A DNA stretch of 64,000 nt from Candidatus Omnitrophota bacterium (GTDB lineage: Bacteria; Omnitrophota; Omnitrophia; Omnitrophales; Aquincolibacteriaceae), in assembly GCA_023247055.1 (NCBI GenBank), contig JAHFHF010000003.1:36367-100366 (forward strand), written 5' to 3'. Positions 3,904-21,689 of the stretch are shown here, piece after piece; the first letter of the stretch is position 1; every line of letters starts with the position of its first letter. The notes under the pieces were generated by a model. It was given only the letters and a program-made list of their open reading frames with translations, made no database searches and was not told the origin of the DNA. The position numbers were made by a program, and so were the translations under genes.

Positions 3904-3933
3904 GTGGACAAACATACAACTGAGGAAAATTCT

Positions 3934-4956
3934 ATGACAGAAAAAATAATTGGCGTGATGAGAATAGCCGGTTTTAACGTGTTTGTGCCGGTCATCCGGC
4001 TGATTCAGGGCGAGAACCGCGATGAACAACTGAAACTTTTGTGGCGGACTATCGGCATCCAGGGCGTGACGCTTGGGGTTTTCCTTGGGCTCTGGGCGCT
4101 CATCGCACCGCAGATTAAAACCAACCTGGGCCAGGTGCCAGGCCCGGCCCAGGTTTGGGAGCAGATTCAAAGTCTGAGCCTGGAGTATCGGATGGAAACC
4201 AAAAACCGCAAGGCGTTTGCGGTCACGGAAAAAGCGCGCGTGGAGCAAAAACGCGCGGAAAATCCGGGCCTGGAAGTCAAGATGCGCCGCTACAGCGGCC
4301 GGCCCACGTTCTTGGACCAAATCTTTACCAGTCTGGTCACGGTTTTTACCGGTTTCCTGCTGGCTTCGCTGGTGGCGATTCCGCTCGGCGTGCTTTGCGG
4401 TCTGAACCGGACCCTGATGAGCGCGCTCAATCCGCTGATCCAAGTATTCAAACCGGTCTCACCCGTAGCCTGGCTGCCGATCGTGACCATGGTGGTCAGC
4501 GCCGTTTACACCGTGCCGCAGCCCTGGCTGGAAAAAGCGTTTATCATTTCCGCCATCACCGTTTCGCTTTGCGCGATCTGGCCGAGCCTGATTAATACGG
4601 CGCTGGGCGTGGCGTCTATTGATAAAGACTACATCAATGTCGCGCGGGTTTTAAAACTGAAATTTTCGACCAAGATTTTCAAGATCGTGCTGCCGGCCGC
4701 GCTCCCGTACATTTTTACGGGCTTGCGGATTTCCTTAGGGGTAGGCTGGATGGTACTGATTGCGGCGGAACTTCTTTCGCAAAATCCTGGACTCGGAAAA
4801 TTTGTCTGGGACGAATTTCAAAACGGCAGCAGCCAATCCTTGGCGCGCATCATGGTCGCGATTTTTACCATCGGTCTGATCGGGTTCATTCTCGACCGCA
4901 TCATGGTGACTTTGCACAAATGGGTTAGTTTCGGCCACGGCACTGCCGGGGCTTAA
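3934..4956 (+). CDS. nrtB: Nitrate ABC transporter permease (NrtB family)
   Basis: Polytopic membrane protein with the ABC-permease signature region (…[12 protein letters not shown]…). RBS GAGGAA lies upstream of ATG 3934. Downstream of nrtA. Confidence 0.75.
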
Positions 4957-5082
4957 ATCTCGGACATGTCATCCTCGCCTCTGCGTGGAAGCAGAGACTA
5001 GGATGCGCATCTCTGTTGGAGCTGTGTCATCCTCGAATGCTTTTATCGAGGATCTAAAGCATTAGATTCCCGCTAGAAGCAT

Positions 5083-5210
5083 GCGGGAATGACACAACGC
5101 CAACAGCGTTGCGCATGACCGTCTCGGTCTCCGCACAGAGGCGGGAATGACACAACGCCAACAGCGTTGCGCATGACCGTCTCGGTCTCCGCACAGAGGC
5201 GGGAATGACA
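5083..5210. repeat. 58-bp tandem direct repeat, 2.2 copies
   Basis: The unit gcgggaatgacacaacgccaacagcgttgcgcatgaccgtctcggtctccgcacagag begins at 5083 and 5141, and a partial copy begins at 5199. Each unit contains the hairpin caacgc-caaca-gcgttg and the reverse-oriented GTCATTCCCGC word. Confidence 0.85.
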
Positions 5211-5233
5211 AAATACGACAAGGAGAAGGTTTC

Positions 5234-6079
5234 GTGGCATTTCTTGAACTGAAAAATGTTTCAAAGGGGTTCGGCGAAGGCGCGAAGCGCGTATCCGTGC
5301 TCAAAGATATTGATCTTTGTGTGGAAGAAGGCGAGTTTGTGGTCATCCTGGGTTTTTCGGGCACGGGCAAAACGACGCTGATTTCTTTGATCGCCGGACT
5401 GCTTGCGGCCGATCAAGGCGAGATTCTGTTGAAGGGAAAACCGATTGTCGAACCCGGGCCGGACCGGGGCGTGATTTTTCAAAATTATGCACTGCTGCCG
5501 TGGCTGACGGTTTACGGCAACGTCGCGCTGGCGGTCAACTATCTCTTCCGCGATTGGCCGGAAGAAAAACGCCGGCAGCATATCGAAAAATACATTGAGA
5601 TGGTCCATTTGACGCCCGCAACCCTGAAACGCCCTGCTGAACTCTCCGGCGGCATGCGCCAGCGTGTTTCCGTGGCGCGCACGCTCGCCATGAATCCTGA
5701 GATTCTGCTCATGGATGAACCCTTGAGCGCGCTCGATGCGCTGACGCGCGGCACGCTGCAGGGCGAAATCGAAAAAATCTGGGAAGAAAACCGCAAAACG
5801 GTTGTTTTGATCACCAATGATATCGATGAGGCCATTCTTTTGGCCGACCGCATTATTCCGCTCAAGCCGGAAGCCGAAGGCGCTTCGCTGGGCCCGGCCT
5901 TTGACGTGCGCCTGCCGCGGCCCCGTGACAAAGACAATTTCAATCACGATGCAGAATACCGCCGCCTGCGCACTGAAATCACACGTTATTTTTTAGAGTT
6001 GCAGTCTTTGAGGCGCGTCGAACAGACGGCGGAAACGATCGTGCTTCCCGAACTCAAACCCGTTTCATTGGCAGGCTGA
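5234..6079 (+). CDS. nrtC: Nitrate ABC transporter ATP-binding protein (short NrtD-like)
   Basis: Walker [13 protein letters not shown] signature LSGGMRQR, Walker B ILLMDEP. GTG start preceded by AGGAGAAGG. Confidence 0.8.
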
Positions 6080-6080
6080 C

Positions 6081-6920
6081 ATGATCGAAAAACCTTATCT
6101 GCATTTCAGCGGCATTTCAAAAATATTCACCGATCCCAAAGGCGAACCCTATCCGGCGGTGGAGGGCTTTGAGCTGCGTGTGGCCAAAGGAGAATTCGTT
6201 TCGATCATCGGGCATTCCGGCTGCGGGAAATCGACCGTGCTGATGATGACGGCGGGTTTAAGCGAAGTCGTGATCGGCGGCATTTTCTTAGACGACAAAC
6301 TCATCGACGAAGCCGGGCCTGACCGGGCGGTGGTGTTTCAATCTCCGAGCCTGCTGCCATGGCTTTCGGCCTTGGACAATGTGCTTTTAGGCGTCAACCG
6401 GGTTTATCCGCATGCCGCCAAAGAAACGCGGCTGGATCTCTGCAAATATTATTTAAACAAAGTCGGGTTGGGAAAAGACATCCATAAAAAGGCAGCGGAC
6501 CTTTCCAACGGCATGAAACAAAGGGTGGGGATCGCGCGTGCCTTTGCTTTGAAACCCAAACTTCTTCTCTTGGATGAACCTTTCGGCATGCTCGATTCGC
6601 TGACGCGGGCCGACCTGCAGGAAGTCCTTCTCGAGGTCTGGAACACAGAAAAGATTACGGCCCTCATGGTGACACATGATGTCGACGAGGCGATTTTTCT
6701 TTCCGACCGCGTGGTTATGATGACCAGCGGCCCGAGCGCCTGCGTGGGCGATATTCTCCCCATTTCTTTTGCAAGGCCGCGGCATAAGGCCCAAGTCATG
6801 GAACAGACCAGCTATTACCAGTATCGCGAACATTTGATCCGATTTCTCGAAGACGGCAAAGACAAAAAAGCTGCACACGGGATGGTGTCAAGCATTGGGG
6901 ATGGTGCCAGTCACTTTTGA
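6081..6920 (+). CDS. nrtD: Nitrate ABC transporter ATP-binding protein
   Basis: Walker A GHSGCGKST, signature LSNGMKQR, Walker B LLLLDEP. Confidence 0.8.
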   Translation: MIEKPYLHFSGISKIFTDPKGEPYPAVEGFELRVAKGEFVSIIGHSGCGKSTVLMMTAGLSEVVIGGIFLDDKLIDEAGPDRAVVFQSPSLLPWLSALDNVLLGVNRVYPHAAKETRLDLCKYYLNKVGLGKDIHKKAADLSNGMKQRVGIARAFALKPKLLLLDEPFGMLDSLTRADLQEVLLEVWNTEKITALMVTHDVDEAIFLSDRVVMMTSGPSACVGDILPISFARPRHKAQVMEQTSYYQYREHLIRFLEDGKDKKAAHGMVSSIGDGASHF

Positions 6921-7783: not shown

Positions 7784-10225
7784 ATGGAACAAAAGCATTT
7801 AGTCGTGGTGGGGGATGGCATGGCCGGCATGTCGTGTGTCGACCAAATTCTTAAACGAAAGCCGAATTTTAAAATTACGGTCTTAAGCGAAGAAACCTAT
7901 TACAACTACAACCGCATCTTGCTTTCCTGCGTGCTCGCGGGCGAAAAGACCGTCGATGAAATTTATATCAATACCAAAGCATGGTATGACGAACATGGCA
8001 TTGAACTTCTTTTAGGCGTCAAAGCCGTTGACGTGGATGCCAAAAACAAAATTGTTTTTACCGCCGATAACCGTCAGATTTCCTACGACCTGCTGCTCTT
8101 AGCCACGGGCAGTAACCCCTTTATTCCGCCGATTGCCGGTATCCAAAAAGATGGTGTGGTTACCTATCGCAATATGGCCGACACCGAAGAGATTATCAAA
8201 CGCTGTGAAACCGCCAAGCATGCGGTGGTGATCGGCGGCGGGCTTTTGGGACTGGAGGCCGCGCGCGGCACCTCCAGCCGGGGCGTGCATACGACGGTGG
8301 TGCACATCATGGACCGTTTGATGGACATGCAGCTTGATGAAGTCGGCGGCCAGTTTTTGAAACGTGAAATCGAGAAACTCGGCATCACCGTGCTTTTGAA
8401 TGCGAACACCGCCGAAATCATGGGCGATTCCAAGGTCGAAGGCGTCAGCTTCAAAGACGGCAATGCCGTGAAAGCGGACATGGTCGTGGTGGCCTGCGGC
8501 ATCCGTCCCAATGTCGAACTCGGTAAAAAAGCGGGTTTGAAAATTAACCGCGGCATTGTGGTCAACGATCACATGGAAACCAGCGACCCTTCCATTTTTG
8601 CGGTGGGCGAATGCGTTGAGCATCGCGAAAAAATTTACGGGTTGGTTGCGCCGCTCTATGACCAAGGCAAAGTGTTGGCTGCCACCATCACGGGAGATAA
8701 AGGGCCCGTGTACGAAGGTTCGGTCTTGGCGACCAAACTCAAAGTCATGGGCATTGAACTTTTTTCAGCCGGCGATTTTAAGGCGCTCGACTCCGACAAA
8801 GAAGTGGTCTCGTATCAAGACCATGCTTTTGGCGTTTACAAAAAAGTCGTGGTGTATGCTAACTGGGTCGTGGGCACGATTTTGATCGGGGATACCTCGG
8901 ATGCCAATCGTTTGCTGGAAATGATCCGCAAGCAGGAGAAAGTTACGGACAACCGGCAGCATTTGCTTTTTCAAAAACCGCCGGCTGTGGCCGGCTCGCC
9001 TTCCGATGTTATGTCCCGTCCGGACACGGACACCATCTGCGGCTGCATCGGCGTCAGCAAGGGGCAAATTCTTTCCGCCATCAAAGAGCAAAGCTGCAAA
9101 ACCGTTTCGCAAGTCAAAGCCTGCACCAAAGCATCTTCGGGCTGCGGCACTTGCGCCGGGCTTGTTCAGGATATTTTAGTCGCGGCATTGGGTTCTGAAT
9201 TCCAGGAAGAAAAAAAAGACACCCTGTGCGCCTGCGTGCCTTTTCCTAAAGAAAAACTCCGCACCATGATTCAAACCCAGAAATTAAAATCCGTGCAGGA
9301 TGTTTTGGACATTTACGGCAACGGCGCAGGCTGTTCGTATTGCAAACCGGCGTTGAGTTTTATTGTCGACGAAGTGCATTGCGGCGATCACAAAGAAGAC
9401 CGCTCGGCGCGGTTTATCAATGACCGCGTGCACGCCAACATTCAACGCGACGGCACTTTTTCTGTGATTCCGCGCATGCACGGCGGTGTGACCAGCCCGC
9501 AGCAGCTCCGCAAAATTGCGGATGTGGCGGAAAAATACAACGTGCCCATGGTCAAGGTCACGGGCAGCCAGCGCATTGACCTTCTGGGCATCAAAAAAGA
9601 AGACCTGCCCAAAGTTTGGGCCGACCTGGATATGAAATCCGGCCATGCTTATGCCAAAGCCGTGCGCATGGTCAAATCCTGCGTGGGTACGGACTTTTGC
9701 CGTTACGGCACGCAAAACTCGATTGCGACGGGCATCCAGCTCGAAACGCTTTTGGAAGGTCTTTACACCCCGGGCAAAGTCAAGATGGGCGTTGTCGGCT
9801 GTCCGCGCAACTGCGCAGAGGCCACGGTTAAAGACATCGGTCTTGTCGGCATCGAAGGCGGCTGGCAAGTCGTGATCGGCGGCGCTGCCGGTAAAGTCGT
9901 CCGCGCCGCAGATATTTTAACCACGGTCAAGACCACCGAAGAAGCTTTGGAAGCGGCACTGCTCTTTTTTCAGTATTACCGGGAAAACGGGGAGTATCTG
10001 GAACGCACTTATGATTTTGTCGAACGCGCGGGACTTGAAAAAATCCGCCGCGAAACCATTCTTGCTTCCGAAGAAACCAAAAAAGGCCTGCTCGAGCGCT
10101 TGAACAAAGCCAGGGCTAAAGCGGTCGATCCGTGGAAGGAAGCCTCCAAGCCCGTTCATCCCATGCAGTTCAAAGATTTTGTGCTGCCCAAAGACGCGGA
10201 AGCTTTGATCGGAGGCCTGTCATGA
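7784..10225 (+). CDS. nirB: Assimilatory nitrite reductase [NAD(P)H] large subunit
   Basis: N-terminal FAD/NAD-binding VVVGDGMAGMS. BFD-like [2Fe-2S] DTICGCIGVSKGQILSAI. C-terminal siroheme/4Fe-4S nitrite-sulfite reductase domain. 813 aa. Confidence 0.9.
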   Translation: MEQKHLVVVGDGMAGMSCVDQILKRKPNFKITVLSEETYYNYNRILLSCVLAGEKTVDEIYINTKAWYDEHGIELLLGVKAVDVDAKNKIVFTADNRQISYDLLLLATGSNPFIPPIAGIQKDGVVTYRNMADTEEIIKRCETAKHAVVIGGGLLGLEAARGTSSRGVHTTVVHIMDRLMDMQLDEVGGQFLKREIEKLGITVLLNANTAEIMGDSKVEGVSFKDGNAVKADMVVVACGIRPNVELGKKAGLKINRGIVVNDHMETSDPSIFAVGECVEHREKIYGLVAPLYDQGKVLAATITGDKGPVYEGSVLATKLKVMGIELFSAGDFKALDSDKEVVSYQDHAFGVYKKVVVYANWVVGTILIGDTSDANRLLEMIRKQEKVTDNRQHLLFQKPPAVAGSPSDVMSRPDTDTICGCIGVSKGQILSAIKEQSCKTVSQVKACTKASSGCGTCAGLVQDILVAALGSEFQEEKKDTLCACVPFPKEKLRTMIQTQKLKSVQDVLDIYGNGAGCSYCKPALSFIVDEVHCGDHKEDRSARFINDRVHANIQRDGTFSVIPRMHGGVTSPQQLRKIADVAEKYNVPMVKVTGSQRIDLLGIKKEDLPKVWADLDMKSGHAYAKAVRMVKSCVGTDFCRYGTQNSIATGIQLETLLEGLYTPGKVKMGVVGCPRNCAEATVKDIGLVGIEGGWQVVIGGAAGKVVRAADILTTVKTTEEALEAALLFFQYYRENGEYLERTYDFVERAGLEKIRRETILASEETKKGLLERLNKARAKAVDPWKEASKPVHPMQFKDFVLPKDAEALIGGLS

Positions 10226-10617
10226 GCGCTGACGCGTCCATGAAATGGTTCCGGGTTGCTTCTACCCGCGATATTCCTGAAAGGGAAGGCCGGCGCGTGG
10301 AATACGGTCCGCATATTGCCGCGCTTTTTAATTTAGGCACGGAGTATTTGGCCGTGGAGAACCAATGCCCGCATAAGAGCGGGCCTCTGGCCGACGGAAT
10401 TGTGGCCGGAAAAAATGTTTTTTGCCCGCTGCATAACTGGAAAATCAATTTGCAAAACGGCTGCGCCTTGAGCGGCGGAACCGGACAGGTCAAAACATTT
10501 CCGGTCAAAGTGTCGGGCAGTGAGATCTATCTTGCTTTTGAATCCGCGGCCTACCAAGCCTGTGATCTTTCGGCGCAAGCCCAAGAGTCTCAAACTTCCA
10601 ATCCGGTGGAAGGATGA
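10222..10617 (+). CDS. nirD: Nitrite reductase small subunit (Rieske-like)
   Basis: CPHKSGPL…CPLHNWKI. The ATG overlaps the nirB stop (ATGA). Confidence 0.8.
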   Translation: MSADASMKWFRVASTRDIPEREGRRVEYGPHIAALFNLGTEYLAVENQCPHKSGPLADGIVAGKNVFCPLHNWKINLQNGCALSGGTGQVKTFPVKVSGSEIYLAFESAAYQACDLSAQAQESQTSNPVEG

Positions 10618-10626: not shown

Positions 10627-12318
10627 ATGGACGAATTTAATCTGATCGATTTGCTCGACTCGAGCGGCCTTCCGCTCAAAAATCGGATCAGCAAAGAAGG
10701 CTATTACAACCCCCGCCCGGAGAAGGCCATAGCGCCGGCCGCTGACGTTCTCATTCCTACAGCCCCCCTCGAACAAGGCGAACAATACCGTTTCCATTTT
10801 GACATGTCCTTGTGCATCGGCTGCCAATGCTGCGTTGTTGCCTGCAACGAACAGAACAACAATCCTGCCGAGGTGAATTGGCGGCGGGTCGGCGAAATCG
10901 AAGGCGGTATTTATCCTGACACTAAACGCTACCATCTTTCGATGGCCTGTAATCATTGTTTGGATCCGTCCTGCCTGGAGGGTTGTCCGACAGACGCTTA
11001 CATCAAACTTGAAAACGGGATTGTTCAACACCAGGCCGATGAATGCATCGGCTGCGGCTACTGCACCTGGAACTGTCCCTACGGTGTTCCGCAATACAAT
11101 ACGGAACGCAACATCGTGACCAAATGCGATATGTGTCACAGCCGTCTTAAAGAAGGGCAGCTGCCGGCCTGTGTGGCCGCCTGCCCGGAAGGCGCGATCA
11201 AAATTGAAAAAGTCAATGTGGCCGAGTGGCGCGAAAACCATGCGCAAGCGAACGCTCCTTATGTGCCCGATTCCGGCATGACGCTTTCCACCACGCGGAT
11301 CACATTGCCTGAAAATGTGCCCGACGATTTGCTGCGTGCCAACCGGCACCGGATTGAACCCGAAAAGCCGCACACTTCGCTCATCTTGATGACGGTTTTG
11401 ACCCAGCTGGCCGCCGGCGGCTTCATGACGCTCTGGCTGCTGGAGTTTTTTGCCCGCTGGGTTAATTTTTTGAAACCGCTGCAGGGTTTTCTTCCTTATG
11501 GCGCGGCCGGTATGCTTGCGATGACGGGCCTGGCGCTTGTCACGGCAGTTTTCCACCTGGGCCGTCCATTGCATGCCTACAAAGCCCTGCGGATGTGGAA
11601 GCGTTCCTGGCTTTCGCGCGAAGTGCTCTTCTTTGCGCTTTTTTCCAAGGCCGGCGCCGCTTATGCCGGGCTGGAACTGGCCCGGCATTTTTTAGGATGG
11701 AATATTCCGGACAACGCCATGACGCTGCTAGGAGCGGCCGTGGTGCTCACGGGGTTGGCGGGCGTGTATGCGAGCGCAAAAATCTACATGGTACCGGCAC
11801 GGCCGGCTTGGAACACGATCCGCACGCCGCTGCGCTTTTTTTTGACGGGCTTTATTTTGGGGCCTTTGTTTGCCCTCGTAGTTTACAGCCTGTATGGGGT
11901 TCTTCAAATCCATGAGCCGCTCAGTGCCGCGATCAAAGGCCCGGTGTTTGTTTTTCTTGCGGTTTCGGCGATTGCTGGTTTTTTTCAGATGGCCGTGCTT
12001 CTATCGAGACTCTTTTCCATGCCCTGGGAAGAGTTCAATGAACTGCATGCCTCGAGTTTTCTCTTGCTGCACCGTTTCAAAAATCTTTTTGTCCTGCGGC
12101 TGGCGGCCCTTGTTCTCGGTTCTTTTATCTGTCCCTTTGCCCTGTTTGCGGCATTGCAGCCGGATGCTTTGCAGGGGGGAATCTTTTTGGGCCTGGGTTC
12201 CGTGTGTTTTCTTTTTTCGCTGGCCGGTGAATTTTTAGGCCGGTATTTGTTTTTCGTCACCGTGGTTCCTAAAAATATGCCGGGCTCGTTTTTTGCGGCC
12301 CAAGGCGGCAGCCATTGA
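10627..12318 (+). CDS. Fusion protein: DmsB/NrfC-type 4x[4Fe-4S] ferredoxin domain + NrfD/PsrC-like polytopic membrane (quinol-interacting) domain
   Basis: Four Cys clusters (CIGCQCCVVAC, CNHCLDPSCLEGCP, CIGCGYCTWNCP, CDMCHSRL…CVAACP) followed by about 280 aa with 8 or more hydrophobic helices. Lies immediately upstream of nasA and is translationally coupled to it. Confidence 0.65.
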   Translation: MDEFNLIDLLDSSGLPLKNRISKEGYYNPRPEKAIAPAADVLIPTAPLEQGEQYRFHFDMSLCIGCQCCVVACNEQNNNPAEVNWRRVGEIEGGIYPDTKRYHLSMACNHCLDPSCLEGCPTDAYIKLENGIVQHQADECIGCGYCTWNCPYGVPQYNTERNIVTKCDMCHSRLKEGQLPACVAACPEGAIKIEKVNVAEWRENHAQANAPYVPDSGMTLSTTRITLPENVPDDLLRANRHRIEPEKPHTSLILMTVLTQLAAGGFMTLWLLEFFARWVNFLKPLQGFLPYGAAGMLAMTGLALVTAVFHLGRPLHAYKALRMWKRSWLSREVLFFALFSKAGAAYAGLELARHFLGWNIPDNAMTLLGAAVVLTGLAGVYASAKIYMVPARPAWNTIRTPLRFFLTGFILGPLFALVVYSLYGVLQIHEPLSAAIKGPVFVFLAVSAIAGFFQMAVLLSRLFSMPWEEFNELHASSFLLLHRFKNLFVLRLAALVLGSFICPFALFAALQPDALQGGIFLGLGSVCFLFSLAGEFLGRYLFFVTVVPKNMPGSFFAAQGGSH

Positions 12319-14522
12319 AAAATTTTTTAAAACCCATCAAGAAACGCCTCGGCCTGGACATTCAAAAGGACAAATATGCCTACGGTCTGGATGAGCAGTT
12401 CGGCTATTTGTCCAAGGCGAAAATTCCGGACCGCTGGGTCGCTACGACTTGCGGCTACTGTTCGGTCGGGTGCGGGATGCTGATCGGAGTAAAGGCCGGC
12501 AAGCCGGTCAGCGTGCGCGGCCATGCAGATCATCCCGTGAATGAAGGCATGCTTTGCCCCAAAGGATTGGCTGAACATTATGCCATTACCGCGCCGAACC
12601 GCGCGCAATGGCCGCTCTTGAAAGACACCAAGGGCCGTTTTCAAAGAGTGACGTGGGATGCGGCCATCCAAACGCTTGTGGCGAAATTCCGCGCCATTCA
12701 AAATCAATACGGACCGGAGGCTTTGGGGGTCATCAGTACGGGCCAGCTTGTGACCGAAGAGTTTTACACCCTTGGAAAATTGGTCCAGCTTGGGTTCGGC
12801 ACAAAAAATTATGACGGCAATACGACGCTTTGCATGTCGAGCGCCGTGGCGGGGTACAAACGCTCGTTTGGCAGCGACGGGCCGCCGGGGAATTACGAAG
12901 ACCTGGAAAAAGCGGACTTGGTTTTTCTGATCGGCGCCAATATTGCGGACAATCATCCCATCTTGTGCTACCGTCTTGAAAAAAACCTGAAAAAAACCGT
13001 CATCGTTGCGGACCCGCGCGTGACGAAAACCGCCATGATGGCCGATCTTTTTCTGCCCGTGAAACCGCGCAGCGATATTGCGCTGCTCAACGGCATCATG
13101 CATTGGATCATCAAGGCCGGCAAGGCGAACCAGGATTATATTCAGAAACATACGCAGGGTTTTGCGGAATTGCGCGCGCATCTTGAGAAATATACGCTCG
13201 ATTACGTCAGCGGCGTCACAGGCCTGCCGGTCCAGCAAATCCAAAAAACGGCGCAGCTTTATGCGGAAGCCAAAGCGCCTTTTATCGGCTGGACCATGGG
13301 CGTCAATCACAGCACGCAGGGCACGGAAACCGTGAACACGATCTGCAACCTGGCTTTGATCACCGGCAATATCGGCCGGATCGGCGCGGCGCCGTTTTCC
13401 ATCACCGGCCAATGCAATGCCATGGGCACGCGCGAATCGGGATTTGCGTCAAGCCTGCCCGGCTACCGCAAATTTGAAGAGGCGGGCCACCGGGCCGAAC
13501 TGGCCCAATTGTGGAATGTGGATGAAGAAATCATTCCCAAGGCCCGCGGCCTGGCCTATCCCGATATTATCGAGGCCGTGCTGAGCGGAAAAATTAAAGG
13601 GCTGTGGATCATTGCCACCAACCCGCTGGTGTCGTTTCCCAACCAAAATTATCTCAAAGAAGTTTTGAGCCGGCTGGATTTTCTCGTGGTTCAGGACGGC
13701 TATCACCCCATTCCCACTTCAGAGATCGCGCATCTGGTTTTGCCGGCGGCCGTGTGGGGTGAGAAAGAAGGCACGTATACGAATTCCGAGCGCCGTGTGA
13801 GCAAAGTGAATAAAGCGGTCGAGCCTCCGGGGCAGGCCAAATCGGATTTTGATATTTTTCTTGCCATCGCCGAAGCGCTGGGCGTGTCCGGAAAACTTTT
13901 TCCCGGCTGGACCAAGCCGGAAGATGCTTTCGAAGAATGGAAAAAAGTCTCGCGCAGCCGGCTTTGTGATTATTCAGGTATGACGTATGAATTACTCGAG
14001 CAAATTGGCGGGATTCAATGGCCCTACTCGCTGGATCAGCCGCGGGATGCCGCGCAAACTTATCCGCTGTATCAAGACGGCGTTTTTCAAACCGCGGACG
14101 GCCGCGCCAAACTTTGGGTGGTCGAAAATGAAGCGCCGCCGGAAGTCCCGAATACCGAGTATCCCTTTTGGCTCAACACCGGCAGGACCGTCGAGCATTG
14201 GCATACGCGCACCAAGACCGGGCAGATCCCGCTATTGAACCGTCTGTCGCCGGAAGCCTGGGTTGAGATGAATACGCGCGATGCGCTGAAACTCAAAATT
14301 AAACACGGCGATTACGTTCGCGTGGACTCCCGCCGAGGCGCGATCGACCGCATCGTCGTGCGTGTGACGGAAACCGTGGCGCCCGGGCAAGTGTTCATTC
14401 CGTTTCATTTTGCGGAAGCCAATGCCAACAATTTGACCGTCAATAGCTGCGATCCCTATTCGCGCGAACCGAACTACAAGCAGGCTGCCGTCCAAATCCG
14501 CAAAGCGGATTCGAAACTTTAA
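12315..14522 (+). CDS. nasA: Assimilatory nitrate reductase catalytic subunit (molybdopterin oxidoreductase, NasA/NarB type)
   Basis: N-terminal [4Fe-4S] motif CGYCSVGCGM…GMLCPKG. 735 aa. No twin-arginine signal. TTG start overlaps the upstream stop. Confidence 0.8.
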   Translation: MKNFLKPIKKRLGLDIQKDKYAYGLDEQFGYLSKAKIPDRWVATTCGYCSVGCGMLIGVKAGKPVSVRGHADHPVNEGMLCPKGLAEHYAITAPNRAQWPLLKDTKGRFQRVTWDAAIQTLVAKFRAIQNQYGPEALGVISTGQLVTEEFYTLGKLVQLGFGTKNYDGNTTLCMSSAVAGYKRSFGSDGPPGNYEDLEKADLVFLIGANIADNHPILCYRLEKNLKKTVIVADPRVTKTAMMADLFLPVKPRSDIALLNGIMHWIIKAGKANQDYIQKHTQGFAELRAHLEKYTLDYVSGVTGLPVQQIQKTAQLYAEAKAPFIGWTMGVNHSTQGTETVNTICNLALITGNIGRIGAAPFSITGQCNAMGTRESGFASSLPGYRKFEEAGHRAELAQLWNVDEEIIPKARGLAYPDIIEAVLSGKIKGLWIIATNPLVSFPNQNYLKEVLSRLDFLVVQDGYHPIPTSEIAHLVLPAAVWGEKEGTYTNSERRVSKVNKAVEPPGQAKSDFDIFLAIAEALGVSGKLFPGWTKPEDAFEEWKKVSRSRLCDYSGMTYELLEQIGGIQWPYSLDQPRDAAQTYPLYQDGVFQTADGRAKLWVVENEAPPEVPNTEYPFWLNTGRTVEHWHTRTKTGQIPLLNRLSPEAWVEMNTRDALKLKIKHGDYVRVDSRRGAIDRIVVRVTETVAPGQVFIPFHFAEANANNLTVNSCDPYSREPNYKQAAVQIRKADSKL

Positions 14523-14628: not shown

Positions 14629-15897
14629 ATGAAAGTGAAAGATTTTCTTAAAAGCGGACATCCGCCGACGCTCTTTGCGGCATTTCTTTATTTTGACACG
14701 AGTTTCATGATCTGGGTCCTGATGGGCGTCCTGGGCGTTTTTATTTCCGATGACTTCGGACTGACGGCCGCTCAAAAAGGTTTTCTTGCGGCTGTGCCTA
14801 TTTTAGGCGGGGCTTTAGTGCGTATTCCCTTGGGCCTTCTCGTGGACCACATCGGGCCTAAAAAGACAGGCCTTTTGGGACAGGTGATTGTGCTTATCCC
14901 GCTTTTGGGCGTCTGGCTTTTCGGCAGTGATTTAAATGCGGTGTTTGCTTTTGGGCTGCTCCTCGGGATTGCCGGCGGAAGTTTTGCAGTGGCCCTGCCG
15001 CTGGCCAGCCGCTGGTATCCGGCGCAATACCAAGGCATGGCGCTGGGCATTGCCGGGGCGGGCAACAGCGGCACGGTTCTGGCGGCGCTTTTTGCTCCGA
15101 GCCTGGCTGAGATCATGGGCTGGCGCAATGTTTTTGGAATCGCTCTTGTACCGGTTCTGCTGACGCTCGCCGCTTTTTATTTTTTGGCTAAGGAAAGCCC
15201 GGCGCAGCCCAAACCCAAAAAATTTTCGGATTACTTTTCTGTTTTTAAAGAAGCAGACACCTTTTGGTTTTGTTTTTTCTACGGCATCACTTTTGGCGGC
15301 TTCGTGGGACTAGCCAGTTTCCTGGGGATTTTCTTTCATGACCAATACGGCCTTTCCAAAGTCATGGCCGGAAACATTACGGCCCTGTGTGTCTGCGCCG
15401 GCAGTTTCTTCCGGCCGGTAGGAGGCTATTTGGCCGACCGGTTCGGGGGCGTCAAAATGCTCAGCCTTCTTTTTGGGGCCGTGGCTTTATTCGTTTCGGG
15501 AGTTGCCACTCTGCCTTCCTTTATCCTTGCCGTGACGTTTATTTTTTTGGCCATGGCTGGCCTTGGCATGGGCAACGGGGCCGTGTTTCAACTGGTGCCT
15601 TTGCGGTTCAAAAATGAAATTGGCGTGATGACGGGTGTTGTCGGCGCGGCCGGCGGCCTTGGCGGTTTTTTTCTGCCGACAATTCTTGGTTTTTTTAAAC
15701 AAACGGCTGGTTCCTACGGTTTTGGCTTTTTGGCCTTTGCGTTTTTTAGCTTCGCGGCCCTGGTGACTTTGCAAATCGTGCAAAAAGGCTGGAGTTTTTC
15801 CCAGCGGCAGCCTGAATTTCAGCCTGATTTTTCAACGGCGGCTTCTTTACATCCAAACCTTATTCTGCAGCCGGAAGCGGCCGCTAACCGGGAGTGA
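14629..15897 (+). CDS. narK: Nitrate/nitrite transporter, MFS NNP family (NarK/NrtP-like)
   Basis: 12-TM MFS with GxxxNxG-type motifs (GIAGAGNSG, GMGNGAVFQL). Confidence 0.8.
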   Translation: MKVKDFLKSGHPPTLFAAFLYFDTSFMIWVLMGVLGVFISDDFGLTAAQKGFLAAVPILGGALVRIPLGLLVDHIGPKKTGLLGQVIVLIPLLGVWLFGSDLNAVFAFGLLLGIAGGSFAVALPLASRWYPAQYQGMALGIAGAGNSGTVLAALFAPSLAEIMGWRNVFGIALVPVLLTLAAFYFLAKESPAQPKPKKFSDYFSVFKEADTFWFCFFYGITFGGFVGLASFLGIFFHDQYGLSKVMAGNITALCVCAGSFFRPVGGYLADRFGGVKMLSLLFGAVALFVSGVATLPSFILAVTFIFLAMAGLGMGNGAVFQLVPLRFKNEIGVMTGVVGAAGGLGGFFLPTILGFFKQTAGSYGFGFLAFAFFSFAALVTLQIVQKGWSFSQRQPEFQPDFSTAASLHPNLILQPEAAANRE

Positions 15898-15902: not shown

Positions 15903-17396
15903 ATGGCGAATTTGCTTATTTCTAATCCCCAAAAACAAAAATCCGCAAAGAGGCCATGGCCGGCGCGGCGCACAAAAATCGTGGCCACGGTGGGACCCGC
16001 TTGCGAACAACCGCGCATTCTCAAAGAATTGATCCGCCAAGGCGCGGACATTTTGCGGATTAATACTTCGCATACGTCCGTGGAAGGGCTGCAGGAATGG
16101 ATCCGTTTAATCCGCAGCGCCGGCGCTGAAATTAAAAAAGAAATCCCTATTTTGGTTGATCTTCAAGGCCCGCGCATCCGCACCGGGTCTCTTAAAGATA
16201 AAAAGCCGGTGATGCTCCGCAAAGGCCAGTTGGTCGCGATCGTGCCGGGTAAAACCGGAGAGGACAACGGCGTTTATCAAATCAGCACGCCCTGCCTGCA
16301 ATTTCCGGCAATGGTTAAAAAAGGCGATCCCATTTTGATCGATAACGGGCTGATCGATCTTGAAGTGCTAAGCGTGGAGAAAAAAGAAATTAAATGCCGT
16401 GTGGCCTCCACGGGTATTTTAGGCGAGAACAAAGGCATCAACCTTCCCCATGCACCGACGACCCTGCCGGCTTTGTCGGATAAAGACATTGAAATTGTGC
16501 GCATGGCTGCCGCGCTGGAGGTCGATTTTATTGCACTTTCGTTTGTCCGGACCCCGGGCGACATTCTTTCAGTTCAAAAAATGCTCGACCGCTGCGAAAA
16601 ATCGATTCCCATCATTGCCAAGATTGAAAAGCCGATGGCGGTGGAGCAGATTGACGCGATCATCGCCGTCAGCCATGGAATCATGGTGGCGCGCGGAGAT
16701 TTAGGTATCGAGTTGGGCGTGGAAAAAGTTCCCGTTATTCAAAAGCAGCTTATCGAAAAAGCCAATCAAAGCAGCCTTCCCGTGATTACGGCCACTCAAA
16801 TGCTCGAGTCGATGATGGAGCATTCGCGGCCCACGCGAGCGGAAGCCTCCGATGTGGCCAATGCCGTCTTTGACGGGACGGATGCCGTCATGCTCTCGGG
16901 TGAAACTTCGATCGGAAAGTATCCGCTTGAAACCGTGCGCATGATGAGCGAAATCATTTGTGAGGCTGAAGAGCACATGCGCGGCCAGGCCCGGACGGTC
17001 CGCCCTATCTCGAGCCGCAAGGACCATCCGCTGTGCGCAATTTCGTATGCCGCGCAAAATGCGGCCGCTCACATTGACGCGAAGGCCATCGTGGCCTTCA
17101 CGCTCAGCGGCAAGACGGCCAGAATGGTTTCGAAGTTCGAGCGTCATTTGCCGATTTTGGCGTTTACACCTTCCGCGGCCGTAAGCCGGCGCTTGATGCT
17201 GTGCCGCGGCGTTATTCCGCTCCAAATTGAAAATTGCCATAGCACCGATGAAATGCTGGAACGGGGCGAACGTGTTTTGAGCCAATCCAAATTGTTGAAA
17301 AAGGGCGATGCCGTCGTGGTGCTCTCCAGCGCCCATGCGTTTCACGGCGCGAATTACATGGTCCTCATTCATTGGATCGGAGGAATGCCCCGGTGA
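15903..17396 (+). CDS. pyk: Pyruvate kinase
   Basis: TKIVATVGPA, INTSHTS, IIAKIEKPMAVEQID, MVARGDLGIE, plus the C-terminal regulatory domain. Start ATG 15903. GTG 15894 is an alternative. Confidence 0.85.
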   Translation: MANLLISNPQKQKSAKRPWPARRTKIVATVGPACEQPRILKELIRQGADILRINTSHTSVEGLQEWIRLIRSAGAEIKKEIPILVDLQGPRIRTGSLKDKKPVMLRKGQLVAIVPGKTGEDNGVYQISTPCLQFPAMVKKGDPILIDNGLIDLEVLSVEKKEIKCRVASTGILGENKGINLPHAPTTLPALSDKDIEIVRMAAALEVDFIALSFVRTPGDILSVQKMLDRCEKSIPIIAKIEKPMAVEQIDAIIAVSHGIMVARGDLGIELGVEKVPVIQKQLIEKANQSSLPVITATQMLESMMEHSRPTRAEASDVANAVFDGTDAVMLSGETSIGKYPLETVRMMSEIICEAEEHMRGQARTVRPISSRKDHPLCAISYAAQNAAAHIDAKAIVAFTLSGKTARMVSKFERHLPILAFTPSAAVSRRLMLCRGVIPLQIENCHSTDEMLERGERVLSQSKLLKKGDAVVVLSSAHAFHGANYMVLIHWIGGMPR

Positions 17397-18373
17397 AAGA
17401 TCAGTTCGGAAGGACTTTAGAGTATCTGCGCATTTCCGTGGTCGACCGCTGCAATTTACGCTGCGTTTACTGCATGCCGGCTTCGGGCGCGGGTTTTGAC
17501 CCCTGGGCCGAACTTTTGACTTATGATGAAATTGTCACGCTGACGGGTTATTTTGCGGAAATGGGTATCCGCAAGGTCCGGCTGACCGGAGGCGAACCGC
17601 TGGTACGGCCCGGCATGGCCGGCCTGATCACGCGGCTTAAAAAAATTCCGGGCATCGAAGAACTGGCCTTGTCGACCAACGGCGTCTTACTGAAAGACCA
17701 GGCGCGCCAGCTGCGTGACGCGGGCCTGGACCGGATCAATGTCAGCCTCGATACGCTGCGCCGTGACCGTTTCAAAGAAATTGCCAAAATGGACCGTCTG
17801 CATGACGTGCTTGAGGGCATTGAAGAAGCCCTGCGCGTTGGACTGCGGCCCGTCAAAATGAATACGGTTTTGATGAAAGGCGTCAACGAAGATGAAATTC
17901 TGGATTTGGTGCGGTTTGCGGTCGAACGCTCGATCGAAGTCCGTTTCATTGAATTGATGCAGACGCATCAGAATGTGCCGCTGGACCCGCTGAAAACTTT
18001 TTTGAGCGTAGAAGAAGCCCGGGCCATCATCGAAAAAGAATTCCGCTTAGTCCCGTTTGACACGTACTTTTCCTCGCCGGCTAAAGTTTTTTTGATTGCA
18101 GGCACAAACGCGCGGGTGGGACTCATCAGTCCGCTGTCCTGCTTTTTTTGCACGCGCTGCAACCGCCTGCGCCTTAAAGCCAACGGATTCCTTAAAACCT
18201 GCCTGCACGGCAAAGAAGATTTAGATTTGAAAACGCTTGTGCGCGCCGGTGTTCCTAAAGAAGAAATCCAGCAGCGCATCGCCGGAGTAGTTTTTACGCG
18301 CCCGGAGCAGCATTTTTTAAATGAAAAAGATGTTCCGCACAAAGATTTCCAAATGTCGCATGTGGGAGGCTGA
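17372..18373 (+). CDS. moaA: GTP 3',8-cyclase (radical SAM)
   Basis: CNLRCVYCMP radical-SAM motif. C-terminal CTRCNRLRL second cluster. Confidence 0.9.
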   Translation: MDRRNAPVKDQFGRTLEYLRISVVDRCNLRCVYCMPASGAGFDPWAELLTYDEIVTLTGYFAEMGIRKVRLTGGEPLVRPGMAGLITRLKKIPGIEELALSTNGVLLKDQARQLRDAGLDRINVSLDTLRRDRFKEIAKMDRLHDVLEGIEEALRVGLRPVKMNTVLMKGVNEDEILDLVRFAVERSIEVRFIELMQTHQNVPLDPLKTFLSVEEARAIIEKEFRLVPFDTYFSSPAKVFLIAGTNARVGLISPLSCFFCTRCNRLRLKANGFLKTCLHGKEDLDLKTLVRAGVPKEEIQQRIAGVVFTRPEQHFLNEKDVPHKDFQMSHVGG

Positions 18374-18378
18374 AGCGG

Positions 18379-18624
18379 GTGAAAGTGAAACTGCTTTTTT
18401 TTGCGCAGCTTAAGGATTTCATTCAGGCGCCGGAACTGGTTTTGGAACTCGCGGGCCCGCTCTCGTGCCGCGAGGCCTCGGACACTCTCGGAAGGCAATA
18501 CCCCGGAGCCGGCTCGATTTTAGATCAATGCGCGGTTGCGCGAAATGGTCTCTTAGTTCCGGAAAACGCCATGCTGGAAGACGGAGACGAACTCGCCCTG
18601 CTGCCGCCCGTGAGCGGAGGATAA
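18379..18624 (+). CDS. moaD: Molybdopterin synthase sulfur-carrier subunit
   Basis: 81 aa ending in Gly-Gly (…LPPVSGG). Confidence 0.8.
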   Translation: MKVKLLFFAQLKDFIQAPELVLELAGPLSCREASDTLGRQYPGAGSILDQCAVARNGLLVPENAMLEDGDELALLPPVSGG

Positions 18625-18632
18625 TTTTAAAG

Positions 18633-19169
18633 GTGCCGACATCAAATTGTCTGACCTATGAAACGATCGACGCCCGGACGTTTATAACCACGGGTGAAGC
18701 TGCGGGTACGGCAGGAGGCACCGTTCTTTTTTTTGGAATAGTCCGCAATCAAGCGCTGCAGCGACAGGTCACGCATTTAGTCTATGAGGCCTACGAGCCG
18801 CTGGCCGAACGGATGATCGATGAACTTATTTCAAAAGCCATGCGCATTTGGCCTCTTTTGCGCATTCAGGTTTTGCACCGGCTTGGACGCGTTGAGGCGG
18901 GTGAAATCGCTGTTGCGATTGAAGTCATCAGCAAACACCGCGATGAAGCTTACAAAGCCTCGCGCTTTTTAATCGACCAGATTAAGACCGATGTGCCTGT
19001 GTGGAAAAAAGAATATTTTGAAGACGGGTCTTACCGCTGGGGCCAGTGCGAGCACAAAACCGTAGCGGCCGGTCGCGACCGGCCACTACTTGACGGTACG
19101 CGTCATTGCGAGTCCACGGAAGCTGTTATGGCGGACGAAGCAATCTCAGGGCATGACATAGGGACGTGA
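18633..19169 (+). CDS. moaE: Molybdopterin synthase catalytic subunit
   Basis: MoaE fold motifs (…FFGIVRN…HLVYEAYEP…KHRDEAY…PVWKKE). GTG start 18633 follows the moaD stop. The last ~15 codons are encoded by a GTCATTGCGAG repeat. Confidence 0.7.
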   Translation: MPTSNCLTYETIDARTFITTGEAAGTAGGTVLFFGIVRNQALQRQVTHLVYEAYEPLAERMIDELISKAMRIWPLLRIQVLHRLGRVEAGEIAVAIEVISKHRDEAYKASRFLIDQIKTDVPVWKKEYFEDGSYRWGQCEHKTVAAGRDRPLLDGTRHCESTEAVMADEAISGHDIGT

Positions 19170-20518
19170 GAAATATGCTGGAACATCAAGAGGCGCTTGA
19201 AAAAATTTTTAAATTCTCAAAAACACTCCCCATCTCTCAAGTCCCCTTAGAAATGGCGTTGGGGCAGGTCTTGAGCAAAGACCTCCGCGCCTCCTTCCCA
19301 TTGCCTTCTTTCGATAATTCGGCGGTGGATGGTTATGCGCTGCGTTTCCCGGTTTGTCATTCTGAGCCCGGCAAGATTGGAGGGGCGAAGAATCTCAGAA
19401 CGAGATCCTTCGCTTCGCTTCCGCCACTAAAGCGTCGGCGGGCAAGCATGATGACAAATAATTTTACGCTCAAGGTCGCCGGAGAAATTGCGGCGGGTGC
19501 AAAAAATCCGCCCAAATTAATTCCCGGAACGGCCGCCCAGATTTTTACCGGTGCACCGGTCCCTGCCGGAACGGAAGCGGTGGTCATGCAGGAAAAGTGT
19601 GCTCGTGAAAATGGCCGTGTCCAATTTTCCGGCGCGCCCGTTCCGCTTGAAAATATCCGGTTCAAGGGCGAGGACATCCAAAAAGGGGAACTCCTTTTAA
19701 ACAAGGGAACAGTGTTAGGGGCGGCCCAGATTGGGCTTTTGGCCGCGGCCGGCTATGCGAAAGTTCCGGTCATTCGCAAACCGCAAGTGACAGTCCTGGC
19801 CACAGGCAATGAACTCAAAAAACCCGGAGAAAAAATAAAATCCGGTCAGATTTTTGATTCCAATACGCCGCTCTTGCGGGCACTTCTTGAGGAAAACGCA
19901 TGCGCCGTCTCTGCGCTGCCATCCGGCCGCGATTCTCGCGCCGCACTCCAAAGAAAAATCCGTCAAGGTCTCAAAGCCGATGTGTTTTTAATTGCCGGAG
20001 GCGTTTCCGTGGGGAAATACGACCTGGTCAAAGAGCTTTTGCGCGAAGCCGGGGTGCGCGAAATTTTTTGGAAGGTCAACATCAAGCCCGGCAAACCACT
20101 TTTTTTCGGCCGCAAAGGGAAAACGCTGGTCTTTGGCCTGCCGGGCAATCCAGTTTCCGTTTTTGTGACTTTTTCCGAGTATGTCAAACCCTGCCTTCAA
20201 AAGCTTCAAGGAAAAGCAGCGCACGCGGTTTTTGAAAAAGCAAAAATGGCTGCGGATTTTAAAAATGGCCCGCGCCGGCATTTTGTCCGCTGCGTGGTTG
20301 AGCAGGGGACTGCGGCGCCTCTCGCCGGGCAGGGGTCACACATGATTCGTTCGCTGGCGCAAGCCAATGCAATTTTGGAAGTTCCACCGAATGAATTCTT
20401 GCCTAAAAACCGGGAAGTGACTGTGAAATTGTTCGGTGAGCCTTTGCCAAGAAGTCTGTCGCATTCCGTAGTGGCAATTCATGAATTGCCACTACAAAAG
20501 GCAGTTCAAAAGCATTAA
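19166..20518 (+). CDS. moeA: Molybdopterin molybdotransferase carrying an in-frame ~105-bp repeat-element insertion
   Basis: DNSAVDGYALRF…IFTGAPVPAGTEAVVMQE…LPGNPVS. The insertion PVCHSEPGKIGGAKNLRTRSFASLPPLKRRRASMMTNN coincides with the repeat at 19353-19458. The C-terminal codons are supplied by a 28-bp palindrome. Confidence 0.8.
   Translation: MRNMLEHQEALEKIFKFSKTLPISQVPLEMALGQVLSKDLRASFPLPSFDNSAVDGYALRFPVCHSEPGKIGGAKNLRTRSFASLPPLKRRRASMMTNNFTLKVAGEIAAGAKNPPKLIPGTAAQIFTGAPVPAGTEAVVMQEKCARENGRVQFSGAPVPLENIRFKGEDIQKGELLLNKGTVLGAAQIGLLAAAGYAKVPVIRKPQVTVLATGNELKKPGEKIKSGQIFDSNTPLLRALLEENACAVSALPSGRDSRAALQRKIRQGLKADVFLIAGGVSVGKYDLVKELLREAGVREIFWKVNIKPGKPLFFGRKGKTLVFGLPGNPVSVFVTFSEYVKPCLQKLQGKAAHAVFEKAKMAADFKNGPRRHFVRCVVEQGTAAPLAGQGSHMIRSLAQANAILEVPPNEFLPKNREVTVKLFGEPLPRSLSHSVVAIHELPLQKAVQKH
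19353..19458. mobile_element. MITE-like element (TTGTCATTCTGAGC…GAAGAATCTC…GATCCTTCGCTTCGC…ATGACAAA) inserted in-frame inside moeA
   Basis: It shares termini and internal words with the intergenic copy at 56231-56313. It lies in a loop that is only ~10 aa long in ordinary MoeA proteins. Confidence 0.65.
20468..20495. repeat. 28-bp perfect palindrome GTAGTGGCAATTCATGAATTGCCACTAC (copy 1)
   Basis: Exact 14+14 bp inverted repeat. An identical copy is at 25690-25717. Confidence 0.9.
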
Positions 20519-20553
20519 GGATGACGCCTCAAAAAAATCCAGGAGATGATGCT

Positions 20554-21093
20554 ATGAAAACGTTTGCAGTTGTAGGCCGTAAAGGCGCCGGCCGGTCCGA
20601 ATCTCTGCTGGCGCTCGTGGCTGAATTGAAAAAACGCGGCCACCGCGTGGGCGTGGTGCGCCATTTACAGCGCGATGACCTGGAAATCGATCAGCCCGGC
20701 AAAGATACGTACAACTACCGGATGCAGGGTGCGGAGAAAGTCATTCTCTCGGGCCGCAAACGCTGCGCTGTTTTTGAAAACCGCAGCGAAGAATATTCGG
20801 CGGCCGAACTTTTGGAAGCTTTTCAGGGCTATGATTTCATCTTTTTTGAAGAATATTATTTAGCGGACATGCCTACGATTAAGATTCCCCATTCCATGGG
20901 GAAAAACCCGCAAGCGTTGGCGGGTTTCGTGGAGCAGTTTCCCCCCTCTAACTCCCCCCGAAGAGCACGGGGGGAGAAAAATGCTGCTCATTCTTTATTT
21001 CATCGCCGTGTTGTTGAGGAAGAGAAAAAAAGAAAATCAATTCTGGTTTCCTCCCCCGCGCTTTTCGGGGGAGGATCAAGGAGGGGGAAATGA
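20554..21093 (+). CDS. mobB: Molybdopterin-guanine dinucleotide biosynthesis adapter protein
   Basis: MKTFAVVGRKGAGRSESL P-loop. RBS AGGAG before ATG 20554. The C-terminal ~50 aa are a translation of the G/C-rich repeat element. Confidence 0.7.
   Translation: MKTFAVVGRKGAGRSESLLALVAELKKRGHRVGVVRHLQRDDLEIDQPGKDTYNYRMQGAEKVILSGRKRCAVFENRSEEYSAAELLEAFQGYDFIFFEEYYLADMPTIKIPHSMGKNPQALAGFVEQFPPSNSPRRARGEKNAAHSLFHRRVVEEEKKRKSILVSSPALFGGGSRRGK
20938..21089. repeat. G/C-hairpin-rich ~150-bp inverted-repeat element (family 2), copy 1
   Basis: tcccccctctaactccccccgaagagcacggggggagaaa … cctcccccgcgcttttcgggggaggatcaaggaggggga. The termini are mutually complementary, and there are two internal perfect hairpins. 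Confidence 0.7.
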
Positions 21094-21689
21094 GCGGCAT
21101 GGGCGCGATTATTCTCGCCGGCGGTGAAAGCCGCCGCATGGGTTTCGATAAAGCCTTGTTGCCGTATGCCGGTAAAACGTTATTGGAAGAGATCGTTCAG
21201 AGGGGCCGGCCTTTTTTTGAAGAGATTTATGTCGTTGTCGACCAGGCCAAAAAAACAAAGCGTCTTGACCTCTCAGGCGCCAAAGTTTTTGAAGACGTGG
21301 TTCCTAAAGCCGGTCCGCTGGCCGGGCTTTACACCGGCCTTTGTCACTCGGCATATCCGCTAAATATGGTTTTTACCGTCGATATGCCGTTTGTCGACGG
21401 AGCCTGTATTTTAGAACTCAAACACGCTGCGACGGAAAATCAATCCGACGTTTTTTGTTTTGAAACCAGCGATGGAAACGTGCAGCCTTTTCCCGGAATT
21501 TATGCCAAAGAATGCCTGCGCTGGATGCAGCTTTTGATGGATCAGAACACGCGATCCATGAAGCGGCTTTTTCAGATCGTTGACTGGCGCGCAATCCCTG
21601 CGGCCTCTGAAAAAGAACGAGTCTTTAAAAATTTAAATCAATGCGAAGATTACTGGAACACGCTGGATTTGCAGGGGAAGGCCCCATGA
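21090..21689 (+). CDS. mobA: Molybdenum cofactor guanylyltransferase
   Basis: GAIILAGGESRRMG…DKALLPY N-terminal MobA motif. Confidence 0.8.
   Translation: MSGMGAIILAGGESRRMGFDKALLPYAGKTLLEEIVQRGRPFFEEIYVVVDQAKKTKRLDLSGAKVFEDVVPKAGPLAGLYTGLCHSAYPLNMVFTVDMPFVDGACILELKHAATENQSDVFCFETSDGNVQPFPGIYAKECLRWMQLLMDQNTRSMKRLFQIVDWRAIPAASEKERVFKNLNQCEDYWNTLDLQGKAP

Follow-up and report, generated by a model that had tools for sequence, protein, structure and literature searches.

A DmsBC-like fusion protein paired with an assimilatory-type nitrate reductase: a predicted cytoplasm-facing, quinol-dependent enzyme of Omnitrophota and other bacterial phyla

From where does an assimilatory nitrate reductase draw its electrons if the gene preceding its own encodes a membrane protein? 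Enzymes of the NarB/NasA/NasC type are served by ferredoxin or flavodoxin, or by an NADH-dependent flavoprotein. In a stretch of 64,000 nucleotides from a Candidatus Omnitrophota bacterium (contig JAHFHF010000003.1, positions 36,367 to 100,366 of the forward strand; hereafter the window), a gene of this type, nasA (12315..14522, + strand), directly follows a gene (10627..12318, + strand, ATG start) for a 563-aa protein in which an electron-transfer and an anchor subunit are fused, and which we call BC. A first-pass annotation of the same DNA had proposed that the two proteins make up a membrane-associated, quinol-driven nitrate reductase. We consider it likely that BC and NasA indeed constitute one membrane-bound, cytoplasm-facing quinol:nitrate oxidoreductase, supplying nitrite to the nitrite reductase NirBD.

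The BC protein consists of an N-terminal extension (aa 1-50), a DmsB-type domain (aa ~53-197), a linker (aa 198-249) and a DmsC/NrfD-type domain (aa 250-544). The four-cluster ferredoxin domain (10783..11217, + strand) contains 16 cysteines in four groups (63/66/69/73, 108/111/116/120, 140/143/146/150 and 167/170/182/186), enough for four predicted [4Fe-4S] clusters. Its best NCBIfam match is DmsB (TIGR02951, aa 53-197, E 5e-47, under the model cut-off), the Pfam family Fer4_11 matches aa 102-193 (E 8e-21), and a profile search of the PDB with the iron-sulfur domain returned ArrB, PcrB, FdnH and PsrB. In an alignment of 78 homologues all 16 cysteines are invariant; in a more distant set of 118 family members, with identity down to 30%, 15 of the 16 are, Cys66 being kept in 117 sequences and replaced by Ala in one. 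The initial description of this part as a four-cluster domain of DmsB/NrfC type is borne out by these matches.

The remainder of BC is a putative eight-helix quinol-binding anchor (11374..12258, + strand). The DmsC family PF04976 matches aa 249-543 with 63.6 bits against a cut-off of 22.3, the alignment covering profile positions 7-273 of 275. Hydropathy and an AlphaFold2 model agree on eight transmembrane helices, which the model places at residues 250-276, 284-311, 328-356, 362-387, 399-427, 434-463, 485-509 and 517-544; these are long, and the block-mean predicted local distance difference test (pLDDT) of the membrane domain is mostly above 90 (whole model: pLDDT 81, predicted template modelling score 0.83). 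A sequence-profile search of the PDB with the membrane domain gave no match even at E <= 1, and PsrC was not found. Fold comparison revealed a relationship to PsrC/ActC, with two four-helix bundles. The expectation of a NrfD/PsrC-type domain with about eight membrane passes, and not just one or two, was thus correct.

When the profile built from the 78 homologues is aligned to Escherichia coli proteins, it runs end to end along DmsB (aa 3-172, E 5e-50) and then DmsC (aa 8-275, E 2e-18). The best matches in a plasmid collection are likewise adjacent dmsB and dmsC genes, collinear with BC, and the fused gene itself was not found in that collection. BC is therefore, by profile alignment and fold, a collinear fusion of DmsB and DmsC. 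The exact 563-aa protein is already on record (P0001), and its named close homologues come almost all from Candidatus Omnitrophota genomes recovered from metagenomes.

Alignment to DmsC also indicates where quinol might bind. His310 (nt 11554), Ser327, Ser330 and Glu332 (nt 11620) of BC align to His65, Ser82, Ser85 and Glu87 of DmsC, and none of the four varies in any of the 118 sequences. His65 and Glu87 of DmsC are listed in the quinol site, and according to mutagenesis cited in the same review, their replacement blocks quinol oxidation or binding (PMC8076601).

Next, we turn to the partner of BC. NasA is the 735-aa catalytic subunit of a nitrate reductase carrying molybdenum bis(pyranopterin guanine dinucleotide) (Mo-bisPGD), and displays the domains Molybdop_Fe4S4, Molybdopterin and Molydop_binding. 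Its TTG start codon at 12315 overlaps the BC stop codon TGA (ATTGA, a start/stop overlap of 4 nt) and is preceded by AAGGCGG. Since the first in-frame Met lies past the Cys46/49/53 motif, this TTG is the only workable start, and an independent public gene call (ENA contig) yields the same 735-aa product; the overlap agrees with the coupling to the 563-aa gene noted at the outset. The [4Fe-4S] cluster (FS0) has Cys46, 49, 53 and 81 as ligands, and the molybdenum ligand is Cys173 (nt 12831-12833) in the motif LCMSSAV.

This motif is informative as to the identity of the enzyme. The best solved-structure match is the monomeric NapA of Desulfovibrio desulfuricans (2jim), where GNTTLCMSSAV of NasA aligns to GNPRLCMASAV; an equally scoring formate dehydrogenase has CHGPS at this place. 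Among 17 BC-linked enzymes, 15 show LCM[AS][ST]A[VA] and two from Planctomycetes QCMA[ST]AV, so that the Cys-Met pair is kept in 17 of 17, and in the reference formate dehydrogenases His or Gln comes after the Cys. By identity to annotated plasmid genes, NasA is closer to assimilatory nitrate reductases (36-40%) than to FdhF (30-33%) or NapA (29-31%). In a neighbour-joining tree of the molybdenum subunits (200 bootstraps, few reference sequences), the BC-linked enzymes form one clade (100% bootstrap) within a clade of Nas plus Nap (99.5%), apart from the formate dehydrogenases. Motif and tree together place the molybdoenzyme with nitrate reductases, as had been assumed in the first-pass annotation, and not with formate dehydrogenases.

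The nearest nitrate reductase among the references without a linked BC belongs to a Deinococcus taeanensis plasmid (L081, NZ_CP083456.1, 5917-8376). With ~40-42% identity, it shows Cys-Thr in place of Cys-Met at the molybdenum site, and no BC-like gene is next to it; only two small hypothetical genes lie downstream.

Both proteins begin with extensions of their own. That of BC (10627-10776, aa 1-50) bears the motif F.L.D..D...LPLKNR...GYY.P, kept in Omnitrophota and Planctomycetia and missing from shorter homologues (~500-520 aa); the AlphaFold2 model is of low confidence here. At the N-terminus of NasA (12315-12440, aa 1-42), orthologues share LGLD..EKYAY..D..FGY.S.AKIPDRWV ahead of the cluster motif. 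Both extensions may be docking elements.

On which side of the membrane would such an enzyme work? A twin-arginine motif followed by a hydrophobic stretch, the mark of the twin-arginine translocation (Tat) pathway, is absent from BC, from the window NasA, as was originally stated, and from NasA orthologues. Two kinds of apparent signals in orthologues were dismissed: some 'RR' matches are out-of-frame read-through into the upstream BC gene, and an RRLGLD stretch is followed by polar residues. Over 78 BC sequences, the anchor loops carry on average 10.3 lysines plus arginines on the iron-sulfur side against 2.0 on the far side, whereas the periplasm-facing DmsC of E. coli, cut at the same helix boundaries, has 2 and 4. 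Under the positive-inside rule, these charges would put the iron-sulfur domain, the adjoining quinol site and NasA in the cytoplasm. Charge bias and lack of export signals thus support a placement of the whole predicted enzyme at the cytoplasmic side of the membrane, the reverse of DmsABC, in accord with the facing initially suggested.

We also looked for the gene pair in other genomes, as had been recommended. A scan with two short peptide patterns over one genome per GTDB species confirmed at least 551 loci. The best 80 of them belong to Omnitrophota, Planctomycetia, Chlamydiae, Nitrospira, Actinomycetes, Acidimicrobiia, Turneriella (Leptospiraceae), many Acidobacteriota, Burkholderiales and Dormiibacterota. 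At least 1.2 kb of downstream sequence is available in 74 of these 80, and in all 74 a nasA orthologue (62-81% identical) directly follows BC, the overlap of the two genes having an estimated median of ~15 nt; nirB was found in 55 and narK in 20 of the 74, and as a rule the pair is accompanied by nirBD together with narK or nrt genes. The pairing is clearly not a matter of chance. In a search of 1.84 billion cluster representatives, 779 clusters at 50% identity matched with E <= 1e-30. Evidently, far from being peculiar to the window, the BC-nasA pair is a conserved module with a very wide distribution, and Acidobacteriota, a phylum dominant in soil, carry it particularly often.

The full-length representatives belong for the most part to a second BC group, only 30-36% identical to the window protein, which includes cultured Planctomycetes. 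Two of these, Gimesia alba and Symmachiella dynata, share the gene order narK, nirB(D), BC and a molybdenum subunit of 735-740 aa; these subunits keep Cys-Met and are sister to the window clade (100% bootstrap). Since the same pairing and sister molybdenum subunits recur in so distant a BC clade, BC and NasA have diversified together, and co-diversification is what an obligate partnership predicts. The nitrite reductase of these planctomycete loci is a different one: Gimesia alba (L092, CP036269.1, 8224-8994) has a NirB-NirD fusion of 992 aa and then a separate FAD_binding_6/NAD_binding_1 reductase, and in Symmachiella dynata (L093, CP036276.1, 6155-8989) a protein of the sulfite reductase type is joined to Rieske and FAD/NAD domains.

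We propose that the enzyme would operate as follows. Quinol, probably menaquinol, would be oxidised where helix 2 of the anchor ends and helix 3 begins (His310, Ser327, Glu332), and its electrons would pass through the four [4Fe-4S] clusters of the N-terminal domain of BC. The [4Fe-4S] cluster of NasA would take them up and hand them on to the Mo-bisPGD site at Cys173, where nitrate would be reduced to nitrite; NirBD would then convert nitrite to ammonium with NAD(P)H. Because quinol oxidation and nitrate reduction would both take place on the cytoplasmic side, this step would be electroneutral and lack a redox loop such as that of NarGHI. Energy conservation, if any, would come from the quinone-reducing dehydrogenases or from the still-debated proton path in NrfD-type subunits.

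The surroundings of the pair agree with the setting of nitrate transport, nitrite reduction and molybdenum cofactor genes described earlier. Upstream of BC lie a porin gene, nrtA, nrtB, two ABC ATPase genes, nirB and nirD. The genes of the ABC nitrate transporter (2056..6920, + strand; Pfam NMT1_2, BPD_transp_1 and ABC_tran) comprise an nrtA-like binding protein (2056-3474), the permease nrtB (3904-4956) and ATPases at 5234-6079 and 6081-6920. The large subunit of NAD(P)H nitrite reductase, NirB (7784..10225, + strand, 813 aa), scores 895 bits with TIGR02374 (cut-off 578), and the small subunit NirD (10222..10617, + strand) 76.3 bits with TIGR02378 (cut-off 74.65). Downstream of nasA follow narK (14629..15897, + strand), coding for a nitrate/nitrite transporter of the major facilitator superfamily (Pfam MFS_1; TIGR00886 288.6 bits, under the cut-off of 311.7), and the molybdenum cofactor genes moaA, moaE, moeA, mobB, mobA, moaC and a Mog/MoaB-like gene (17372..22670, + strand). 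Operon boundaries in the window were drawn from gene overlaps only. Between 5001 and 25000, promoter-like sites number 14 against 14.3 expected from shuffled sequence, and terminator-like sites 47 against 36.3 (standard deviation 5.7), i.e. ~1.9 standard deviations above.

Three further genes are interspersed here, all on the + strand. Ahead of nrtA (496-1914), the porin gene encodes an AlgE-like outer-membrane beta-barrel (PF13372), and a sequence search for relatives of known structure came back empty. The barrel is encoded next to nrtABC or nasA in distant phyla as well (L001, L002, L048, L055, L056, L061, L072) and is a candidate for an outer-membrane nitrate/nitrite channel. Between the second nrt ATPase gene and nirB (6895-7635) there is a homologue of chlorite dismutases of the short clade 2 type (PDB matches 7ati and 5k8z, E 2e-24, and 3qpi, 9e-19; the Pfam match is weak), present in none of the 80 related loci; it might remove chlorite formed from chlorate by nitrate reductase. 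A full-length pyruvate kinase gene (15894-17396) sits between narK and moaA, overlapping the narK stop by 4 nt and the moaA start by 25 nt, and was not seen in the 80 related loci either.

Farther downstream, also on the + strand, the window encodes a two-subunit 2-oxoacid:ferredoxin oxidoreductase (27180-30085) and a quinone-linked, SdhCAB-like succinate dehydrogenase or fumarate reductase (32157-35502), from which it seems that reduced ferredoxin as well as a quinone pool is available to the organism; the SdhCAB-like enzyme fits an organism with such a pool. A 612-aa protein (36298-38136, + strand) combines an MbnB/TglH/ChrH-type peptide-modifying domain (E 2e-109) with DUF2063.

Several points weigh against the interpretation of BC-NasA as a quinol:nitrate oxidoreductase. 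We infer that the two proteins form a physical complex, and likewise the direction of electron flow and the assimilatory role; quinol as the donor is deduced from the conserved DmsC quinol-site residues, and with these the quinol-driven character put forward in the first-pass annotation has gained a probable site. The positive-inside rule is statistical, not absolute, and the relative placement of the BC iron-sulfur domain and the putative quinol site is taken from homology. Furthermore, the tree of molybdenum subunits is a simple neighbour-joining tree with few references, the top NCBIfam score of NasA belongs to the broad formate dehydrogenase alpha model TIGR01591 (600 against a cut-off of 666), and no NCBIfam nitrate-reductase model reaches its cut-off on NasA (NasC NF047855 533 against 1100, NasA_Halo 505 against 1000, NapA models 437-452 against 904-931). 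That score, and the label 'formate dehydrogenase iron-sulfur subunit' given by JGI to some BC homologues, would suit a formate dehydrogenase and hence a formate:quinone oxidoreductase. We find this scarcely credible and have discarded it: the score stays under the cut-off of the model, the active site has Cys-Met and not Cys/Sec-His, the tree sets NasA apart from formate dehydrogenases, and nitrate/nitrite genes occur at essentially every related locus. NasA does not fit a periplasmic NapA either: it has no Tat signal, the genes examined (496-23431) include no nap partner gene (napB, napC or napGH), and the NapA scores are under cut-off. A periplasmic orientation as in DmsABC or Nap, reached through export by an unrecognised route, is similarly very improbable, and we reject it. 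Its closest characterised relatives, DmsBC and PsrBC, do face the periplasm, yet neither BC nor NasA, nor their orthologues, have a Tat or Sec signal, the iron-sulfur domain is fused ahead of helix 1 with the strongly positive loops on the same side, and nitrate is imported by narK and nrt to meet a cytoplasmic NirBD.

A different source of electrons deserves more attention. In the window NirD, as the first-pass annotation overlooked, the two ligand motifs of a Rieske [2Fe-2S] cluster are intact (CPH at aa 49, CPLH at aa 68), and the protein may be a true ferredoxin like NasG of Paracoccus. A route from NADH to NirB, NirD and NasA is then possible, which counts against quinol as the donor and which we take to resemble the Paracoccus NasB-NasG-NasC system; BC would be left as a tether or as a secondary, conditional donor. 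The adjacency of nirBD to BC-nasA in 55 of 74 loci is in line with this. We nevertheless think it rather improbable. Some loci have BC-nasA with no nirBD within 6 kb (e.g. L011, L017, L028, L070), the 118 BC sequences keep the cluster ligands (with one substitution) and the quinol-site residues, needless for a mere tether, and the BC-linked molybdenum subunits form a clade of their own, co-diversifying with BC. The same enzyme and electron path could also serve a dissimilatory purpose, as a low-oxygen electron sink or a respiratory nitrate reductase, with NirBD detoxifying nitrite (nitrate ammonification) and the NrfD-type domain perhaps coupling the large drop in potential from quinol to nitrate to proton movement. 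The arrangement was treated under anaerobic respiration by the authors of the Lacipirellula genome (PMC6995999), ion translocation has been proposed for NrfD-like subunits (PMC8076601), and Omnitrophota and many other carriers come from low-oxygen habitats, e.g. groundwater. Still, we hold this role to be unlikely, since the operon includes a high-affinity ABC nitrate transporter and molybdenum cofactor genes but no respiratory partners (cytochromes, NarJ- or NapD-like chaperones), and aerobic heterotrophs such as Gimesia are among the carriers. Moreover, both half-reactions would be cytoplasmic, hence no redox loop, and proton half-channels are poorly conserved in anchors of DmsC and SoeC type (PMC8076601).

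The quinol:nitrate oxidoreductase that we propose can be compared with several known enzymes. With DmsABC, the DMSO reductase of E. coli, BC-NasA has three modules in common, namely a Mo-bisPGD subunit containing FS0, a protein with four clusters and a haem-free anchor of eight helices, as well as the quinol-site residues His65, Ser82 and Glu87 (DmsC numbering). It differs by having B and C in one polypeptide, by an inverted loop charge bias and by a catalytic subunit (Cys ligand) from the Nas/Nap clade, not the DmsA clade. Complexes of the Dms, Psr and Ttr types in general have separate B and C subunits and Tat-exported A and B, unlike BC, which is fused and lacks a twin-arginine signal. The only NrfD-type complex for which a 2021 review proposes cytoplasmic A and B subunits with an inverted eight-helix anchor is the sulfite:quinone oxidoreductase SoeABC, whose SoeC also carries His65 and Glu87, and none of the complexes in this review is a nitrate reductase (PMC8076601). 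BC-NasA resembles SoeABC in its cytoplasmic facing, a likeness that we draw from description and not from sequence. SoeABC works in the opposite direction (sulfite is oxidised and quinone reduced), is made of three separate subunits and has a catalytic subunit of another molybdoenzyme family.

Membrane-bound nitrate reduction facing the cytoplasm is otherwise the domain of NarGHI, which has in common with BC-NasA a four-cluster subunit and quinol oxidation, predicted in the case of BC-NasA. In NarGHI, quinol is oxidised on the outer face by the di-haem cytochrome b NarI, and a proton-motive redox loop results, whereas BC-NasA has no haem subunit and a quinol site predicted to lie at the inner face. 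The NarG family, described as Asp-coordinating (PMC10100899), is only distantly related to NasA. The nearest annotated relatives of NasA (36-42% identity) are the soluble assimilatory nitrate reductases. Like NarB, NasA and NasC, the BC-linked NasA is predicted to be cytoplasmic, has FS0 and Mo-bisPGD with a Cys ligand in a Cys-Met motif, and resides in operons with nitrate transporters and nitrite reductase; unlike them, the BC-linked enzymes form a separate clade (100% bootstrap) with a conserved N-terminal extension of ~40 aa. Two broad surveys of molybdoenzymes treat NasA and NasC as soluble and strictly assimilatory (PMC7331816, PMC10100899), and according to one of them the canonical four-cluster and anchor subunits are not used anywhere in the Nas/Nap/Aio/Fdh clade (PMC7331816), a statement that the BC-NasA module contradicts.

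In the literature searched, which leaves most subscription journals outside, we found one passing mention of such an arrangement and no characterisation. The 2020 genome description of Lacipirellula parvula PX69 reports, in a single descriptive passage, a 'NapA' and an iron-sulfur subunit fused to a NrfD-like membrane subunit, beside narK and NAD(P)H nitrite reductase (PMC6995999). This matches BC-NasA. The passage does not go into orientation, the quinol site, phylogeny or distribution, and reports no experiment. BC-NasA is missing from reviews on NrfD-like complexes and on molybdoenzymes alike. Every module of it is thus known, and their combination and orientation are not described as a system.

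In the standard picture, assimilatory nitrate reductases are soluble and fed by ferredoxin/flavodoxin or NADH, and BC-NasA contradicts this. On balance, and with less confidence than in the complex itself, we lean towards regarding it as a third class of bacterial assimilatory nitrate reductase, membrane-bound, quinol-dependent and fed by the quinone pool, which would be the standard nitrate-assimilation route in Acidobacteriota, Planctomycetota, Omnitrophota and others and could double as an electron sink at low oxygen. Cultured Planctomycetes (Gimesia, Symmachiella, Lacipirellula) carry the pair, making the proposal directly testable. If BC-NasA is driven by quinol, it would be the second cytoplasm-facing complex of the NrfD type, after SoeABC. 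The energy cost and the oxygen dependence of nitrate assimilation would then have to be reckoned differently, and the split between assimilatory and dissimilatory nitrate reduction, as read from counts of nasA, narG and napA in metagenomes, would blur.

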